Below are positions 7,416-58,277 of a DNA stretch of 64,000 nt, in pieces. Made by a program: the position numbers and the translations under genes. The stretch lies in the IMG/VR virus record IMGVR_UViG_3300025735_000003, positions 21,607-85,606 of that record; one strand, 5' to 3'. Under the pieces are notes generated by a model. It was not told the origin of the DNA, did not search any database, and saw only the letters and a program-made list of their open reading frames with translations. Numbering within the stretch: position 1 is the stretch's first letter; every line of letters begins with the position of its first letter. The DNA is from a virus (Duplodnaviria; Caudoviricetes).

Positions 7416-7588
7416 TCCACATCATAAACAGGACACACATCAGACAACATCCTGACGTACGTATCATAATCCATAAAATTCCCTACCAAGAAGAATATTC
7501 CCTGACTATTCATAACAATCATCTCTCCCTCTTTCAGCTTAATCTTCTGTCCCGTAGATGTGTCGATTATTTTGAATTTCTTTTTCAT
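7397..7588 (-). CDS. hypothetical phage protein
   Basis: Operon packing. Confidence 0.6.
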   Translation of the reverse strand: MKKKFKIIDTSTGQKIKLKEGEMIVMNSQGIFFLVGNFMDYDTYVRMLSDVCPVYDVEWKGEE

Positions 7589-7812
7589 TTAATCTGACCC
7601 TTCTCAAGCTCATCCATTACAAAATTCCAGCCGTTTCGTCGCTCTAGATCAAACTTGACCAATTCGTACATTTTGACTAAGGTTGTGGTCTTGATGCTGA
7701 ATCGGGCACCATCTACGTCAGTGAACGTACTGTAATATTGGTTTGGGTTGGCTGACTGGTAATCTTCAATAGTCAGTCCTTTATCGGTAATTTTCATGGT
7801 GCTTCTCCTCAT
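7585..7812 (-). CDS. hypothetical phage protein (first gene of the leftward operon)
   Basis: GAGGAG RBS upstream of MKITDK. Confidence 0.6.
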   Translation of the reverse strand: MRRSTMKITDKGLTIEDYQSANPNQYYSTFTDVDGARFSIKTTTLVKMYELVKFDLERRNGWNFVMDELEKGQIK

Positions 7813-7826
7813 TGGTTGATGTGCCT

Positions 7827-21050: not shown

Positions 21051-21696
21051 TTTGACAGGGAAAACTTTCGGTCGTTGGGTGGTTATTTCTAGAGGTTTGG
21101 ATTATACTTACCCTTCAACCGGTAAAAGCGCACCTCGTTGGAACTGCCTTTGCGAATGTGGTAAAGAAAAGTTGGTGCATGGAGCGCACCTTAAGAATGG
21201 CACAAGTATTAGTTGTGGATGCTACAACATTGAACAAAGCTCAACTCACGGCCTTTCTCATACCCGTGTGTATAATGCTTATTGGCATATGAAACGAAGA
21301 TGCTCTGAAGATGCAGCACCGAAAGATAAAGAGCTTTACTTTGATAAAGGTATTGGTGTATGTGAACGATGGTCCGATGTTGTAGTGTTCATTAAGGATA
21401 TGGGAGAATGTCCAGATGGCTACGAACTTGAAAGGATTGATGGCAGTCTAGGGTACAGTCCTGATAATTGCATTTGGGCAAGTGAGTTTACTCAAGCACA
21501 GAATAGGTCAACATTCAAGAATAATACTTCTGGTAAGACGGGTGTTGCTTGGAGTCCACAACACGAGAAATGGCGTGTTGGAATCTCTCATAATAAGATC
21601 CGTTACGAGGGTGGGTTGTACTCAGACTTTGATGAAGCTGTAAAAGCAAGAGAAGCTTTAGAACTTGAACATCTTGGATATATCAAGGAGAATTAA
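21034..21696 (+). CDS. HNH homing endonuclease with AP2-like C-terminus
   Basis: DLTGKTFGRW..WNCLCECG..SCGC; LERIDGSLGYSPDNCIWA; NNTSGKTGV. Confidence 0.8.
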   Translation: MQKLVDLTGKTFGRWVVISRGLDYTYPSTGKSAPRWNCLCECGKEKLVHGAHLKNGTSISCGCYNIEQSSTHGLSHTRVYNAYWHMKRRCSEDAAPKDKELYFDKGIGVCERWSDVVVFIKDMGECPDGYELERIDGSLGYSPDNCIWASEFTQAQNRSTFKNNTSGKTGVAWSPQHEKWRVGISHNKIRYEGGLYSDFDEAVKAREALELEHLGYIKEN

Positions 21697-50638: not shown

Positions 50639-52066
50639 TTAGAAATTAAACTCGTTCATCTTTCCCAGTTGTGGGACAGAAAAAGTTGGAATATTCAGTT
50701 TCTGTGCCAAAGTAATAAAAGCATCACTTGTAGCATCGACCTGATCATCTTTGTTATTTCGAGAGCCGTCGAAACCTTCTAGCTCACTGAAATAATCCTT
50801 GTTCCATTCAGCATCAACATAATCTACAAGACCGGCTTCAGCAGCAGCAGCAAATGGTTGGAATCGGACTGTTTTGGATTTGTTAGTTGGACGCATTCTA
50901 GCGTGGAAACCTTCAGCAAGAAGATCCTTAATCATCATCTGTCCAGCAGCTTTACCAGCTTGACCGGGTTCTTGAGGGAGTAGGATATTTGTACCTTCTG
51001 GATCATTTACAGCGCATTCAATAATCTTTTGCATTACTTCGCCATAACGTGCCCTGAAACGAACAACATCAACGACAATGTAGTGTAAAGATTTTGTCTT
51101 TGCCATCAAGACGCCAACAGTCCAGTCAGGATTTGGATTCAGGTCACTGGGAAGTGTTCCTGCAATATCCCATGCTCTGCAATATGAAATAATGTTTTGT
51201 TCAAACATCTTCACAGGTTGCATCCAGTCTTTTTTTAGCATGCCCGATCCAGAGGGGCGGACAAACCAGTTCCCGTAGAGGTAGCGCTGGACATCTACAA
51301 ACGGCTTAGCCTTAAGTGTAGAAATGTAACCTCTGTCGTTCGCAAGCAATACTGGATTGTCATAGCAAGTGGCACTAATAAAAGTGAAAGTTTTAATACC
51401 ACTTTCTTCACCTTCACCATATATCGCTTCTAATTCTTTACGATCATCTGCCCAAATGTACTTACCATCTTCCACTACATAGTAGCGAGTAAGACCGTCT
51501 TTTGTTAGATCAGGCGTACCATCTTCTTGAAGATAAGGTCTAATCCAATCAAGAGCGAACCAATCTGGGTCCGGGTTGCACGTAAGCACCATTTGTTTCT
51601 TATGCTTAGCTCGTGCGGATCGAATACGAAGTCCTAGATACTCAATACACACTTGGGAGAAGTGTGTGGCTTCGTCAAATAACACAAAAGTATATTGTGC
51701 ACCTTGGTGCTGGAACCTGTTTTGATCATGTTCCATGTGAGAGAACTTAATACTACCACCTGATGGAAATGTGATCTTCAAGTGTTTTTGATTAACTTTA
51801 ATGTTCTCTTTGCCGAATACATAAGCATATAGTTCGCAAGCTGTTTCCCACAGACCCCCTTGAGCTGTAAGCTCACCGGTAGTCTTCCGAAAGATGACCC
51901 CGCGCAGATAAGGATCGTCTGCGAACTTAAGAGGATAAAGCAAAGCTACGTAACTTTTTCCTGAGCCCATTGCCCCACCTACAATAGCCGTATCATTCGA
52001 CTGATGGAGTATGAGATTTTGTTTTGGGCTACTAGGCCCTATTGCCGGTTGTTCTAAATCTTCCAT
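50639..52066 (-). CDS. terL: terminase large subunit
   Basis: GGAMGSGKS, FDEATH, CNPD, AWD, DDQVDA. Confidence 0.93.
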   Translation of the reverse strand: MEDLEQPAIGPSSPKQNLILHQSNDTAIVGGAMGSGKSYVALLYPLKFADDPYLRGVIFRKTTGELTAQGGLWETACELYAYVFGKENIKVNQKHLKITFPSGGSIKFSHMEHDQNRFQHQGAQYTFVLFDEATHFSQVCIEYLGLRIRSARAKHKKQMVLTCNPDPDWFALDWIRPYLQEDGTPDLTKDGLTRYYVVEDGKYIWADDRKELEAIYGEGEESGIKTFTFISATCYDNPVLLANDRGYISTLKAKPFVDVQRYLYGNWFVRPSGSGMLKKDWMQPVKMFEQNIISYCRAWDIAGTLPSDLNPNPDWTVGVLMAKTKSLHYIVVDVVRFRARYGEVMQKIIECAVNDPEGTNILLPQEPGQAGKAAGQMMIKDLLAEGFHARMRPTNKSKTVRFQPFAAAAEAGLVDYVDAEWNKDYFSELEGFDGSRNNKDDQVDATSDAFITLAQKLNIPTFSVPQLGKMNEFNF

Positions 52067-53140
52067 TTAAAATCCTTTAGAAAATTCTACCCACTTAGGA
52101 TCTTCTTGAGGAATCCAACCATCTAGCCATTTAAGTCTAGGGTTAGTGAAGAAAGCCAAACTAACATCATCGTTATGGGTTTGATTATAAATCTTTGTAA
52201 AAACTTTAAGTCCGGGCTTATCAAACTCTACCCAAAGATTGTAAAAGTAATCACACATGGACCACTTAGTTAAAGACTCTTCAGTCTGTGTGGCTAAATT
52301 CTCCCAAGGCTTTTGTTCTCTTGCCTTCATGGATTCTGAGATTTGTTTAAGTAGTTCGGGAGGATGAGATTTACCAAACATATGATGATCTTCTCCATAC
52401 CGCATAGATTTCATCATAATCTCACGAGTTTCCTCTGACCAACCAATACCTCTACGGGCATCACCCATCTTTTTACAATGTTCTTCTGAGAATTTAACTC
52501 CGAAAGATGGGTGATCTTCTCCGCGAAGATAGTTTCTAGTCTTAAATTTCTCTTTGGTTTCTTCTGTATGTTTCTTTCCAAAGAATGGGTTATTTTCCCC
52601 AGTATAAGTTTTGCCCAACTCAACTAGCAGACAACCGCAAGATTGTGTATTCTTAGTTGTTAGACTTCCACCCACTACAGTAATAATATTTCCACAATCA
52701 CACTGACAAAGCCATCTTACTTGTCGGCTTCCACTTGGAGATTCATAAAAGTCAGCAAGTTCTACTACAGTAAGTTTTGTAAACTTTTGTCCGACTAAAT
52801 CTTTATAAGACTTCCCTCGGCGTTTTTCAGAAACCTTCTTAGCAAAATCTTGTTTCAAAGCTTCATACAAATATGAGTTAACTTTACTAATTGCACGATT
52901 GCTCATCATCATTGCAGCGTAAGCTAGTGCGGGAACTTTTGGATAAATTTTCCAAAGTAGCATATGAGCTATGAAATGCTCACGTCCACTTAGCATTACT
53001 AGATTATCAGCTTCATTAGTTCCACCAACAGAGCGAGGAACAATATGATGAATTTCAAAGTAACCTTCATGTTGACTTTTATCAAGACCCCGAACTTTGG
53101 CTTTTTCTACAAGTGCATTATAAATATTTTCGTAATTCAA
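52067..53140 (-). CDS. HNH homing endonuclease with NUMOD3 repeats
   Basis: EIHHIVPRSVGGTNEADNLV..REHFIAH; CQCDCG..SCGC; four GKKHTEETK-like repeats. Confidence 0.85.
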   Translation of the reverse strand: MNYENIYNALVEKAKVRGLDKSQHEGYFEIHHIVPRSVGGTNEADNLVMLSGREHFIAHMLLWKIYPKVPALAYAAMMMSNRAISKVNSYLYEALKQDFAKKVSEKRRGKSYKDLVGQKFTKLTVVELADFYESPSGSRQVRWLCQCDCGNIITVVGGSLTTKNTQSCGCLLVELGKTYTGENNPFFGKKHTEETKEKFKTRNYLRGEDHPSFGVKFSEEHCKKMGDARRGIGWSEETREIMMKSMRYGEDHHMFGKSHPPELLKQISESMKAREQKPWENLATQTEESLTKWSMCDYFYNLWVEFDKPGLKVFTKIYNQTHNDDVSLAFFTNPRLKWLDGWIPQEDPKWVEFSKGF

Positions 53141-53237
53141 AACTTCATATCTCCAACTAGATTAAATTAGGTGAGAACTAGTCGATTGTATCGGCAATCA
53201 ACAGGGCTTGCAATCCCGTTCGCTCTCATTGTATTAC

Positions 53238-53579
53238 TTAAATAATTTCATTCGCTTCCAAGAACTGGCGAATGACTTGTTGCCTATCGCGACCTGTGAT
53301 CCCATGAATCTTCTTAGCCATGGCTCGCAGTGCATCCCAGTCCATCGCTTCGAGAGCTTCTTTAGTCCACTCTTCCTTAATAATCACCACCTCAACACTA
53401 GGTTCACTCTTAAGAAACTCTTCTGTAGTGATTGTCATCACACACGCATGTGGATAGTCATTAAAGAATCGTTCTTTCTTGTCCAACACACCACCCTTCA
53501 CAGAGTATTTGATAATGTTGTCAATAAAGTTGTGACCATAGTAATCTTGGCTGGTAATCAGCAATTTGTATTTATTCAT
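53238..53579 (-). CDS. hypothetical protein with a C-terminal Rho-N/HeH-like helical motif
   Basis: LEAMDWDALRAMAKKIHGITGRDRQQVIRQFL; AGGAG RBS. Confidence 0.65.
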   Translation of the reverse strand: MNKYKLLITSQDYYGHNFIDNIIKYSVKGGVLDKKERFFNDYPHACVMTITTEEFLKSEPSVEVVIIKEEWTKEALEAMDWDALRAMAKKIHGITGRDRQQVIRQFLEANEII

Positions 53580-53616
53580 TTTTAATCTTCTCCTTGTTTG
53601 TTTCTTTGATGGGAGA

Positions 53617-53646
53617 AGTGTATCAACTTTGAAGGCTGTTTGTCAA
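53617..53646 (-). promoter_or_regulatory. sigma70-like promoter upstream of the packaging/head genes
   Basis: TTGACA-N18-TACACT. Confidence 0.6.
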
Positions 53647-53711
53647 CCCTTTTAGAAAATAATTATAATAAATTGCTCTATATTTCAAGAGCAACCTATA
53701 TATCTACTTAT

Positions 53712-56276: not shown

Positions 56277-56552
56277 TTATACCAACAATTGAACAGAAAG
56301 AGCTGTGTTACCTAACTCTACTGCTTTAGCCCAAACGATATCCGTTTCATTCTCAATCACAACAGTTGCAAGAGAGGTTAAGAGGTAGCCATTCTCAGAG
56401 GAAGCTGCTGGAAGAGTTGGGGAGATAATAATACGCACAAAAGAATTCCCTTTGTTTTGAATAACAAGAGGGGAACCTGTGATGAGGGATGTTGCTAAAT
56501 TAAGGTTTTGGTACGCTGTACCTGTCAGTACAATGTTCGGGATTGTTGCCAT
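56277..56552 (-). CDS. small beta-rich virion-like protein
   Basis: GGGAG RBS; LVIQNKG..VRI pattern. Confidence 0.65.
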   Translation of the reverse strand: MATIPNIVLTGTAYQNLNLATSLITGSPLVIQNKGNSFVRIIISPTLPAASSENGYLLTSLATVVIENETDIVWAKAVELGNTALSVQLLV

Positions 56553-56639
56553 ATTGCTATCTCCCTTTAGAGATGACCCTTTGGGCCTTATTTTTATTGT
56601 GTTGTAAAGGAATACGAGATAGTACTACATACATCTACC

Positions 56640-56935
56640 ACTATAAAATAAGTACTGAATCTTCCACGCTTCCTGAAATTCAGCTCTATCCTCACAAGAT
56701 TTGAGGATCTTCTCCACTGCTCTGCACTATTCACAGAAGTCATTTTTATTAGCTAACCGCCAGATTAGCTTTCTGAATGAACTAGGCAAAGTTCTCAGAT
56801 ACCAAGCACGCAGGCTTGATTAGTTTTGTCTGTCCTTTCAGAAACGACTGGAGGCTACCAATCTTCTCAGACAAATTCTTTTCAGTAACATAAATTCAGC
56901 ACGATATCACTGCTTCTGATTTCGTGCGAGTTTCT
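56640..56935 (-). ncRNA. candidate structured RNA (about 300 nt hairpin array)
   Basis: No credible ORF; at least seven adjacent stems, with G-U pairs favouring the minus strand. Confidence 0.5.
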
Positions 56936-56937
56936 TG

Positions 56938-57345
56938 TTACTCTTCGTCTTCGTCAGGTTCAACGAACACTAACGACAAACGAGGTTTCATTTCAGCCTT
57001 GATCTGCTCAGGAGATTGCTCTTCCTCTTCAGTATCACGCTTCCCTTCAGCACGAGCTTTGAAGTTTGTAATCTCATCACTACTCGCTGCTTTTTCAACG
57101 CTTACAATGGAGTTAATGATCCACTTTGCGCTTGCAACAGATTCAGAGTTTACAGTTTCATTCTTAAGACTTTTATCAATCAAAGCAAGGGCGATATCTT
57201 CGCGTTCACGAAGCTTGTCAGCCAGTTCACGGAGTTTGCTCTTTTTGATTCGAACTTTACTATTACCGCTAACATTTCTGTTTGAACGTGGTCCATCAAA
57301 CCTTGTATCAGGTGATGGATTGCTATTCTTTGGAGTTTTAGCCAT
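56938..57345 (-). CDS. putative terminase small subunit / DNA-binding protein (135 aa from MAKTPK)
   Basis: Basic N-terminus with TRF motif, helical core, acidic tail; heads the late operon; identity is inference. Confidence 0.5.
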   Translation of the reverse strand: MAKTPKNSNPSPDTRFDGPRSNRNVSGNSKVRIKKSKLRELADKLREREDIALALIDKSLKNETVNSESVASAKWIINSIVSVEKAASSDEITNFKARAEGKRDTEEEEQSPEQIKAEMKPRLSLVFVEPDEDEE

Positions 57346-57369: not shown

Positions 57370-58036
57370 AATTCTTTCTAAAGAACACTCACAGGCAATA
57401 CCTGCAATACATAAAGATATGAGAATGTTCTGTAGAAAGCTCACTGGCACTCGGGAGAGGGCAAGTACCAATGAGTAAAGACATACTTGAGGAGAAGCAA
57501 GCTGTCTTTAAGGTCCGGCATAGGATAGGAGGAAGACGCCGGGAGGAAACATAGCATTAATAGAATTTCTTCTTAGTTGCTATGGTGAATTCGTAATCCT
57601 GTCTGGTCCGTTACAGGAGGAACGTTTCGCTTATGGAAGATACAGCCATATCACTATCTTCTTAATGGCGAACTGACACAGATGAGTATTATGGCTCTCA
57701 CCCTAGTAAGTCTTAAATAAGTACTCTGCTCACCCTCCCAACCGACATTCACTTTTGGAGGCTACGCGACCTAATAAGGTTTCGACTTATTACAAAGTCT
57801 CGTCAGGCGTGTTAAATAAGTGTGAATGCTGAATACCTACTTGCAGAGCGGTGGTATTGTACGCTCGTAAAATTAACGCTGGTGTTGTTTATCTCGTCCT
57901 TATCACGAGGTGGCAGAATCCAGCAACTGCGCATTCTTTTATACTTTCACAGAAAACAGCATTAGCCGTGTCGCTGGGGTAGAATTCTGCTTTCTTTGCC
58001 CAACCAATATTCCTTGCTCTTCAGGAGCTTTTCACA
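57370..58036 (-). ncRNA. candidate large structured RNA or leader (about 670 nt)
   Basis: Consensus promoter upstream; no credible ORF; about 13-14 stems including nested ones; pyrimidine-rich loops. Confidence 0.6.
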
Positions 58037-58042
58037 GTACCT

Positions 58043-58070
58043 ATTATACAGATTTATTCCTGAATGTCAA
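58043..58070 (-). promoter_or_regulatory. consensus sigma70 promoter
   Basis: TTGACA-N16-TATAAT. Confidence 0.85.
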
Positions 58071-58100: not shown

Positions 58101-58277
58101 CTAACTATCTGAATCAGGCATTACTTTCTTAAAGACAGTTCCATAGTAGCTGATGGTTTCATGTTGATACTCCCAACGGAATGCACCGTCTAGGAATTCT
58201 TCCAAACTTCCATCAATATCACAACTGCAATCAATATCTTCGTTGCCACAAGAAGGGCAATAGTTTAACTCACCCAT
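58101..58277 (-). CDS. small Zn-ribbon-like protein (58 aa)
   Basis: MGELNYCPSCGNEDIDCSC; AAGGA RBS. Confidence 0.6.
   Translation of the reverse strand: MGELNYCPSCGNEDIDCSCDIDGSLEEFLDGAFRWEYQHETISYYGTVFKKVMPDSDS

Follow-up and report, generated by a model that had tools for sequence, protein, structure and literature searches.

A conserved, folded RNA with anti-Shine-Dalgarno-like loops in a clade of uncultured phages

Introduction

In the cuckoo RNAs (ar14, CcsR), two to four adjacent hairpins carry loops that resemble the anti-Shine-Dalgarno (anti-SD) sequence and are thought to act on ribosome-binding sites (RBSs), and the UCCC loops of RNAIII likewise act on ribosome-binding sites (PMC4615179). 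Here we describe a phage RNA of comparable appearance, which we call the CU-loop RNA, encoded on the minus strand of a 64,000-nucleotide (nt) stretch of viral DNA (hereafter the window). The window is the final 64 kb of the 85.6-kb record IMGVR_UViG_3300025735_000003 (positions 21,607 to 85,606), which has direct terminal repeats. The CU-loop RNA is a conserved, folded phage RNA family of ~220 nt with three pyrimidine loops, and it is undescribed both in Rfam, where the whole window gave no match at gathering thresholds, and in the literature that we found, a literature search having returned no published description of the family.

The cuckoo family of the Alphaproteobacteria comprises alpha-r14/ar14 (RF02344), RSs0680a-d (CcsR1-4) of Rhodobacter and SmelC397/NfeR1 of Sinorhizobium. 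Like these RNAs, the CU-loop RNA has adjacent hairpins (here P1-P3) with variable, covarying stems and the same anti-SD-like motif in each loop (cuckoo loops are 9-27 nt long), and ar14 was the only Rfam model that aligned to P2-P3 in a permissive search. The alignment reached 20.5 bits, however, against a gathering threshold of 58.8 (E = 0.23 in a 1.1-kb search), which does not amount to homology. The phage motif is CUCUCCU (34 of 54 loops), whereas the cuckoo motif CCUCCUCCC occurs in none of the listed loops; moreover, the phage RNA adds two further domains, P0 and P4, is single-copy, and sits in a lytic-phage transfer RNA (tRNA) cluster rather than in an alphaproteobacterial replicon.

RNAIII of Staphylococcus aureus is 514 nt long, is under quorum-sensing control and contains the hld gene. 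Like the RsaE/RoxS-type small RNAs, it is a multi-hairpin RNA with a C-rich motif in several of its loops (UCCC, in H7, H13 and H14 of RNAIII) that pairs with the Shine-Dalgarno (SD) sequences of several mRNAs. The CU-loop RNA is built in the same way, and the RNAIII likeness proposed in an initial annotation of this DNA stands as an analogy, though not as homology: there is no sequence similarity and no Rfam match to RNAIII, the phage motif mixes C and U and is complementary to GGAG(A), and the element contains no open reading frame (ORF). In its position the CU-loop RNA recalls T4 species 1 and 2 (rnaC, rnaD) and PAK_P3 ncRNA1 and ncRNA2, small stable RNAs that lie beside phage tRNAs and are cut from a common precursor, the PAK_P3 RNAs having no transcription start site of their own and being abundant late in infection. 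Unlike the CU-loop RNA, rnaC and rnaD are without pyrimidine loops, and they bear no similarity to it; nor did we detect similarity in the syntenic tRNA/non-coding RNA region of PAK_P5. By these comparisons we place the CU-loop RNA outside the ar14/cuckoo, RNAIII and CsrB-type families, as what appears to be a phage-borne, tRNA-array-embedded RNA with multiple anti-SD loops. To our knowledge, a role has been assigned to very few of the regulatory RNAs made by virulent phages, and we know of none that acts globally on RBSs.

Architecture and strand of the CU-loop RNA

The family unit in the window is 221 nt long (57592-57372, minus strand), and not the whole ~690-nt transcript predicted for the locus. 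It consists of five domains, namely a 5' box, the hairpin P0, the hairpins P1-P3 with their pure C/U loops, and the long hairpin P4 with a three-way junction (Table 1), and it is this unit, in its tRNA/ribozyme context, that replaces the 186-nt unit marked initially. The three stems with pyrimidine loops lie where they were first placed, and their loops are predicted to be single-stranded, with unpaired probabilities of 0.99-1.00 in the element and 0.82-1.00 within the full ~690-nt transcript. The element folds at -77.3 kcal/mol, against -41.5 +/- 3.9 kcal/mol for 300 dinucleotide shuffles (z = -9.1), and three CUCC-bearing pyrimidine loops arose in 0 of 300 shuffles (none in 274, one in 24, two in 2); the three-loop arrangement of 57592-57372 is far from chance. 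Two CU-rich linker motifs that had been listed alongside the loops exist, but neither is a family feature: GUUUCCUCCC (57550-57541) falls in a stretch that is CU-rich in only ~10 of 17 homologues, and UUCCUCCUG lies in a window-specific spacer and is partly paired in the minimum-energy fold.

We also considered P4 as a conserved intrinsic terminator and rejected this, its base being A/U-rich (UUUCU/AGAAA) and the U-rich tail AAUUUUAUU found here being absent from most homologues; a terminator prediction at 57407-57389 corresponds to the inner arm of P4.

The transcribed strand is confirmed as minus, as had been favoured from the outset, on the basis of promoter, gene and tRNA orientation, base-pair alternation and stability relative to the complement. 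The tRNA genes that flank or abut the element in relatives share its orientation, U-G/C-G alternation recurs at several pairs in both of the alignments described below, and in 16 of 17 homologues the complement of the element folds less stably than the forward strand, the mean difference being 7 kcal/mol. This bears directly on the plus-strand alternative, a CsrB/RsmZ-like sponge whose GGA/GGAG loops would bind CsrA or RsmA. On that strand the loops would indeed read AGGAGAG, which contains GGA, but it is the CU strand that carries the promoter, every neighbouring gene and the adjoining tRNAs, the conserved U-G/C-G alternation and the poorer fold of the complement speak for the same strand, and neither strand gave a CsrB, RsmY or RsmZ match in Rfam. 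On the transcribed strand, GGA occurs 0-3 times per element and in none of the three loops. We rule the sponge out on this evidence and give it next to no chance.

Conservation and covariation

Relatives were gathered by means of DNA patterns and of three proteins (the downstream protein, a neighbouring one and the terminase), and were screened with nhmmer and with a covariance model built on P1-P4. This produced at least 23 distinct homologues, all of them in viral or metagenome contigs; the matches listed for two gapped DNA patterns on viral contigs were mostly due to chance, and among them nhmmer picked out only a few true homologues, and a metagenome scan contributed only L280 and L283. 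The same five domains were recovered in independent folds of all 17 first homologues, and also in three distant ones. In a MAFFT alignment, 39 of 56 pairs had changed on both sides, giving a covariation score of 0.462 compared with 0.08-0.125 for slid partners, a score that was reached in 0 of 500 shuffles. In a model-fitted alignment, which is biased towards the structure, 36 of 48 pairs had changed and 84% of cells were paired, compared with 39-53% when slid. Covariation is present in every helix and establishes the structure; it includes P0 (both partners changed in 5 of 6 pairs, MAFFT alignment) and P4 (11 of 16 pairs compensatory, model-fitted alignment). A comparison of loop with stem conservation in homologues, which had been proposed as a check, supports the initial interpretation: loop sequence is kept while the stems covary.

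Model R1 identified exactly one true copy of the element in each of the 15 related genomes with a completeness of 90% or more (84-93 kb), second R1 "matches" in these genomes being P4 read on the opposite strand. The CU-loop RNA is a single-copy core feature of a clade of ~90-kb uncultured phages, and terminase identity among genomes that carry it drops to ~50%. No match was found when the region (by blastn) and the downstream protein (by tblastn) were compared with 50,697 phage records. Since the nearest cultured terminases, those of Pseudomonas myophages, are only ~43% identical, the clade has no cultured member; a terminase search of genome contigs for a host gave no match.

Loop motif and ribosome-binding sites

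Across 54 pyrimidine loops from 20 homologues, CUCC is present in 52, UCUCC in 49, UCUCCU in 43 and CUCUCCU in 34, and the P3 loop (CCUCUCCU) is the best conserved of the family. The loops consist of pyrimidines only and measure 7-20 nt; the position of the motif within them is variable, and the stems beneath differ freely. The conserved motif is thus (C)UCUCCU with an invariant CUCC, and neither the CCUCC proposed initially nor the canonical 16S sequence CACCUCCU, so that "anti-SD-like" is an accurate description of the loops and "anti-SD copy" is not.

The invariant tetramer CUCC is exactly complementary to GGAG, the SD core, and the hexamer UCUCCU complements AGGAGA, the consensus RBS of this phage. 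In the window, the RBS consensus is AAGGAGA: an A follows GGAG in 29 of 53 sites, AGGAGA is found in 19 of 112 RBS windows, and UAAGGAG is common. Within the RNA itself, CUCC occurs 3-6 times in each element, whereas GGAG is absent from all 17 elements checked, so the loop motifs have no internal partner.

The use of GGAG differs between gene classes. In the window, GGAG is found in 10 of 29 RBS windows that belong to the gene block following the RNA, which we designate late, compared with 29 of 48 others (p = 0.035). Four further genomes gave 53 of 132 late and 169 of 280 other RBS windows, in the same direction in each and with a pooled p of 1.4e-4 in a test that counts orthologous genes repeatedly and relies on crude gene calls. 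GGAG-type RBSs are therefore rarer downstream of the RNA (34-40%) than elsewhere (60%).

Genomic context and association with tRNA genes

In the window, the element lies in an ORF-free gap of ~750 nt (58100-57346, minus strand) flanked by a 58-amino-acid (aa) ORF and a 135-aa ORF, and the transcript predicted from a fully consensus promoter (695 nt) folds at z = -5.2. The 135-aa ORF heads a 27-kb same-strand block that includes genes for a tail fibre, a homing endonuclease, the large terminase, the portal and others. In most genomes the CU-loop RNA is positioned 15-60 nt upstream of the first gene of such a long same-strand block. The identity of this gene varies among relatives, being the 135-aa gene in some and a tail-fibre-like gene in others, and in the homologues read the SD sequence of the directly downstream gene never has GGAG (AAAGG, UAGGA, UAGGG or UAGG).

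Although the 64-kb window holds no tRNA genes, the relatives associate the element closely with them. In L004, L010, L170, L240 and L311 the 5' box directly follows the encoded CCA of a tRNA, with zero spacer, in L011 it is separated by 8 nt from a tRNA-Arg on its upstream side, and in L208 a tRNA-Gln begins 3 nt past P4. The order in L311 is hammerhead module, two tRNAs, CU-loop RNA and tail-fibre-like gene, the two tRNA genes taking the place of the window spacer at 57593-57715. Because the 5' box follows tRNA CCA in relatives, it is likely to be the processed 5' end of the RNA. Together, the tRNA and hammerhead context points to a processed stable RNA and not merely a leader, one that would behave as a module of the tRNA array with its ends set by tRNA-processing nucleases.

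In L009 (2590-2730), L170 and L132, the 5' box is immediately preceded by AAUACCA or AUUCCA at a place where no tRNA is called; such stretches may be vestiges, degenerate or tRNA-like, with a continuing role in directing 3'-end processing.

A candidate hammerhead ribozyme upstream of the RNA

Upstream of the CU-loop RNA we identified a candidate type I hammerhead ribozyme, both in the window and in two further phage genomes, represented by three contigs. The module that contains it is ~95% identical in L132/L310 and L311/L312. A core-based pattern search of viral contigs yielded three sequence variants (L310:5741-5768, L311:279-306 and L309:7606-7633), in which N7 is C, U or A. The type I core elements CUGACGA...GAAA...GUC are all present, with an A15.1-U16.1 pair and H17 at the cut site, and the topology is that expected, stems II and III being closed by loops and stem I open, all of them base-paired, with compensatory changes in stems I and III (stem II having been fixed by the search pattern). 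Stem I reads ACGC/GCGU in the window, UACGC/GCGUA in L311 and AUUGA/UCAAU in L309, its distal part is CAUUCAC/GUGAAUG in the window and CAGACAC/GUGUCUG in L311, and stem III is 4 base pairs long in the window and 14 in L309. The same candidate is found in L309/L313/L314 between two protein genes of an unrelated contig. From these sequence features it is likely to be a real ribozyme. The Rfam model Hammerhead_1 scored it at 21.1 bits, below its gathering threshold of 34 bits, with no gathering match for L309 and L311 either, and the minimum-energy fold favours an alternative rod over the hammerhead. A type III reading (26 bits, below threshold) was rejected, as its stem I hairpin cannot form and type I fits.

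Two further structures were noted in the module. Just 3' of the predicted cut, a hairpin GCCUCC...GGAGGGU (57725-57762, minus strand) covaries with L311 (GCUUCC...GGAAGGU), and its loop holds the 3' strand of distal stem I, which implies a pseudoknot-like arrangement. The ~110 nt 5' of the hammerhead (57830-57939, minus strand) are ~95% kept in L132 and L311 and have a predicted structure; they match no Rfam family and might belong to the ribozyme module or form an RNA of their own.

Table 1. Features of the CU-loop RNA locus, listed in the direction of transcription (window coordinates)
Feature	Position	Strand	Remarks
Sigma-70-type promoter	58043..58070	-	TTGACA-16 nt-TATAAT; 12/12 matches; predicted start near 58035
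Conserved 5' module, 224 nt	57716..57939	-	Present in L132/L310 and L311/L312
Candidate type I hammerhead ribozyme	57746..57828	-	Within the 5' module
Hammerhead stem I	57828-57822 / 57752-57746	-	ACGC/GCGU plus distal helix CAUUCAC/GUGAAUG; the positions are those of the distal helix
Hammerhead core CUGACGA	57806-57800	-	Invariant in the three variants apart from N7
Hammerhead stem II	57799-57784	-	Followed by GAAA (57783-57780) and stem III (57779-57770)
Hammerhead cleavage site GUC	57768/57767	-	Cut predicted between these two positions
Window-specific spacer	57593..57715	-	Without homologue in relatives; holds UUCCUCCUG (57614-57622)
5' box	57585..57592	-	GAAUUCAC(C) here; (A)GUUUCACC in most homologues
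P0 hairpin	57550..57584	-	Covarying stem; conserved purine-rich loop AAGA...AAAUUCUA
P0-P1 linker UUUCCUC	57543..57549	-	CU-rich in only ~10/17 homologues
P1 hairpin	57515..57542	-	Loop CUUCCUCCUAUCCU at 57535-57522; helix 4/4 pairs compensatory
P2 hairpin	57476..57510	-	Loop CUUCUCCU at 57497-57490; conserved base (C)UUAAAGA/UCUUUA; helices 2-4 of the model-fitted alignment
P3 hairpin	57440..57475	-	Loop CCCUCUCC at 57461-57454; helices 5-6 of the model-fitted alignment
P4 long terminal hairpin and three-way junction	57374..57439	-	Base UUUCU/AGAAA nearly invariant; upper stem covaries
First downstream gene, 135 aa	56938..57345	-	No family; weak SD AAAGG, without GGAG

Discussion

Since its loops exactly complement GGAG, the CU-loop RNA probably interferes with translation. 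The reading that we favour, to which we assign a little less than an even chance, is that it would be a multivalent anti-SD RNA acting on GGAG sites and freed from a tRNA/ribozyme precursor. The RNA would be transcribed with the phage tRNA/ribozyme cluster, here from the consensus sigma-70 promoter, and would be released by the enzymes that mature the adjoining tRNAs or, here, possibly after self-cleavage of the upstream hammerhead. P0 and the P4 three-way junction would then provide a stable scaffold presenting three (C)UCUCCU loops, free to pair with AGGAGA-type SD sequences of the phage and presumably of the host, and such pairing would block 30S binding at several mRNAs simultaneously. Because GGAG sites are commoner in non-late genes, build-up of the RNA would preferentially damp host and early/middle phage translation; the bias thus suggests a selective action in which GGAG-type initiation is damped and later genes escape. 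Its expression, processing, SD pairing and biological outcome are what we infer from sequence, and the initial interpretation is in this sense partly supported: single-stranded anti-SD-like loops, the minus strand and a phage RNA all hold, while the proposed effect on translation is a reading of the motif.

Loop-RBS duplexes are predicted to average -9.1 kcal/mol, compared with -6.3 kcal/mol for intragenic controls, and the strongest predicted target in the window is the RBS region UGAGGAGAAGCA (~7800-7815) of the ORF at 7585-7797 (minus strand), which is complementary to the P2 apex (57499-57488) without mismatch over 12 nt, at -21 kcal/mol. Several observations nevertheless weigh against an anti-SD role. 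Loop-RBS energy tracks the energy of pairing with the 16S anti-SD (r = 0.69), and complementarity between CU loops and SD sequences is generic, so that specific targets cannot be singled out. The 12-nt match falls to 7 nt in the only orthologue found (L288), hence there is no target covariation, and the match is possibly due to chance. GGAG is still carried by ~40% of late genes, and the gene-class test has the repeated counting of orthologues and the crude gene calls noted above. Furthermore, a sigma-70 promoter of consensus sequence suggests that expression is early, and a late switch would then require the RNA to build up slowly; SD pairing also leaves the conserved sequence of P0 and P4 unexplained.

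Some of these points would be met by a protein-binding scaffold or sponge, in which the UCUCCU loops are repeated sites for a pyrimidine-specific RNA-binding protein that is titrated or recruited, as CsrA is by CsrB; ribosomal protein S1, Rho (through YC dinucleotides), a cold-shock or KH-domain protein, or a phage protein could be the partner. Repetition of a short motif, in loops that range from 7 to 20 nt and at changing positions within them, is the pattern of a protein sponge, the conserved sequence of P0 and of the P4 base and junction suggests recognition by a partner other than mRNA, and the lack of target covariation is in keeping with this. We think a sponge rather unlikely all the same, given that no candidate protein was identified, that the invariant tetramer exactly complements the SD core GGAG and the phage RBS consensus, that GGAG is strictly avoided within the RNA, and that the sponge model does not predict a GGAG bias between gene classes; we also know of no bacterial protein that reads UCUCCU specifically.

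A cis-acting leader of the structural operon would instead remain part of the downstream mRNA and govern how stable it is, how it is translated (for example as a standby or S1 platform where the first gene has a weak SD) or whether RNA polymerase reads through. The short distance to the first block gene in most genomes and the invariably weak, GGAG-free SD of that gene fit a leader well, and with no conserved terminator after P4 transcription probably runs on into the genes. Set against this, the downstream gene is not constant across genomes, L134, L139 and L240 have no gene start directly after the element, in L208 RNase P cleavage at the tRNA 3 nt after P4 would detach it, the tRNAs that border directly on the 5' end are in keeping with a separate RNA released by processing, and masking a single SD would not need three redundant loops, all of which makes a leader improbable in our estimation. 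The resemblance of the loops to the anti-SD sequence could also reflect a decoy of the 16S ribosomal RNA 3' end that absorbs a factor or a defence nuclease; in favour of this, the element belongs to the tRNA cluster, and phage tRNAs are known to counter host nucleases. Yet the conserved motif is CUCUCCU and not the universal CACCUCCUUA, the motifs are held in closed loops and not at a free 3' end, and we know of no nuclease that acts on the 16S anti-SD tail; we regard a decoy as very unlikely.

If the multivalent anti-SD reading is correct, the closest functional analogy is with T4 RegB, an endoribonuclease that acts against GGAG in the SD sequences of early mRNAs and exploits the lower use of GGAG in later genes. 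The same GGAG bias between gene classes is seen here, with the difference that RegB is a protein nuclease, whereas the RNA proposed here would mask GGAG rather than cut it. In its fullest form, which we put forward as a speculation and think more probably wrong than right by a good measure, this would be a stable, tRNA-co-processed RNA of a lytic phage, released by tRNA-processing enzymes or a hammerhead, that on accumulating masks the GGAG SDs of host and early/middle mRNAs while sparing late genes that favour AAGGA, an RNA-only counterpart of RegB acting as a timer or in host shut-off. Such an RNA would offer phages an RNA-based route to reprogram translation and would give a function to long-puzzling stable RNAs in phage tRNA clusters; it could serve synthetic biology as a compact, portable translation damper, and the upstream tRNA or hammerhead could be regarded as interchangeable processing modules for freeing a non-coding RNA.

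Other features of the locus

Just upstream of the tRNA/non-coding RNA locus lies a small Cys-rich ORF (CxxC...CxC; 58101-58277, minus strand, in the window and 1698-1880 in L010), which is kept in at least two genomes and has no family match. After the 135-aa gene there is a second ORF-free stretch of ~385 nt (56553-56937, minus strand) containing GUAGCCUCCA (56849-56858), a sequence that recurs after the hammerhead cut site; a permissive Rfam search of 56500-57000 returned nothing useful. Further along the block, an ORF-free gap of ~570 nt (53141-53711) precedes an HNH/homing-endonuclease gene (52067-53140, minus strand), which abuts the large terminase gene (50639-52066) on its upstream side, and the large terminase matches its PHROG profile from position 145 onward only.

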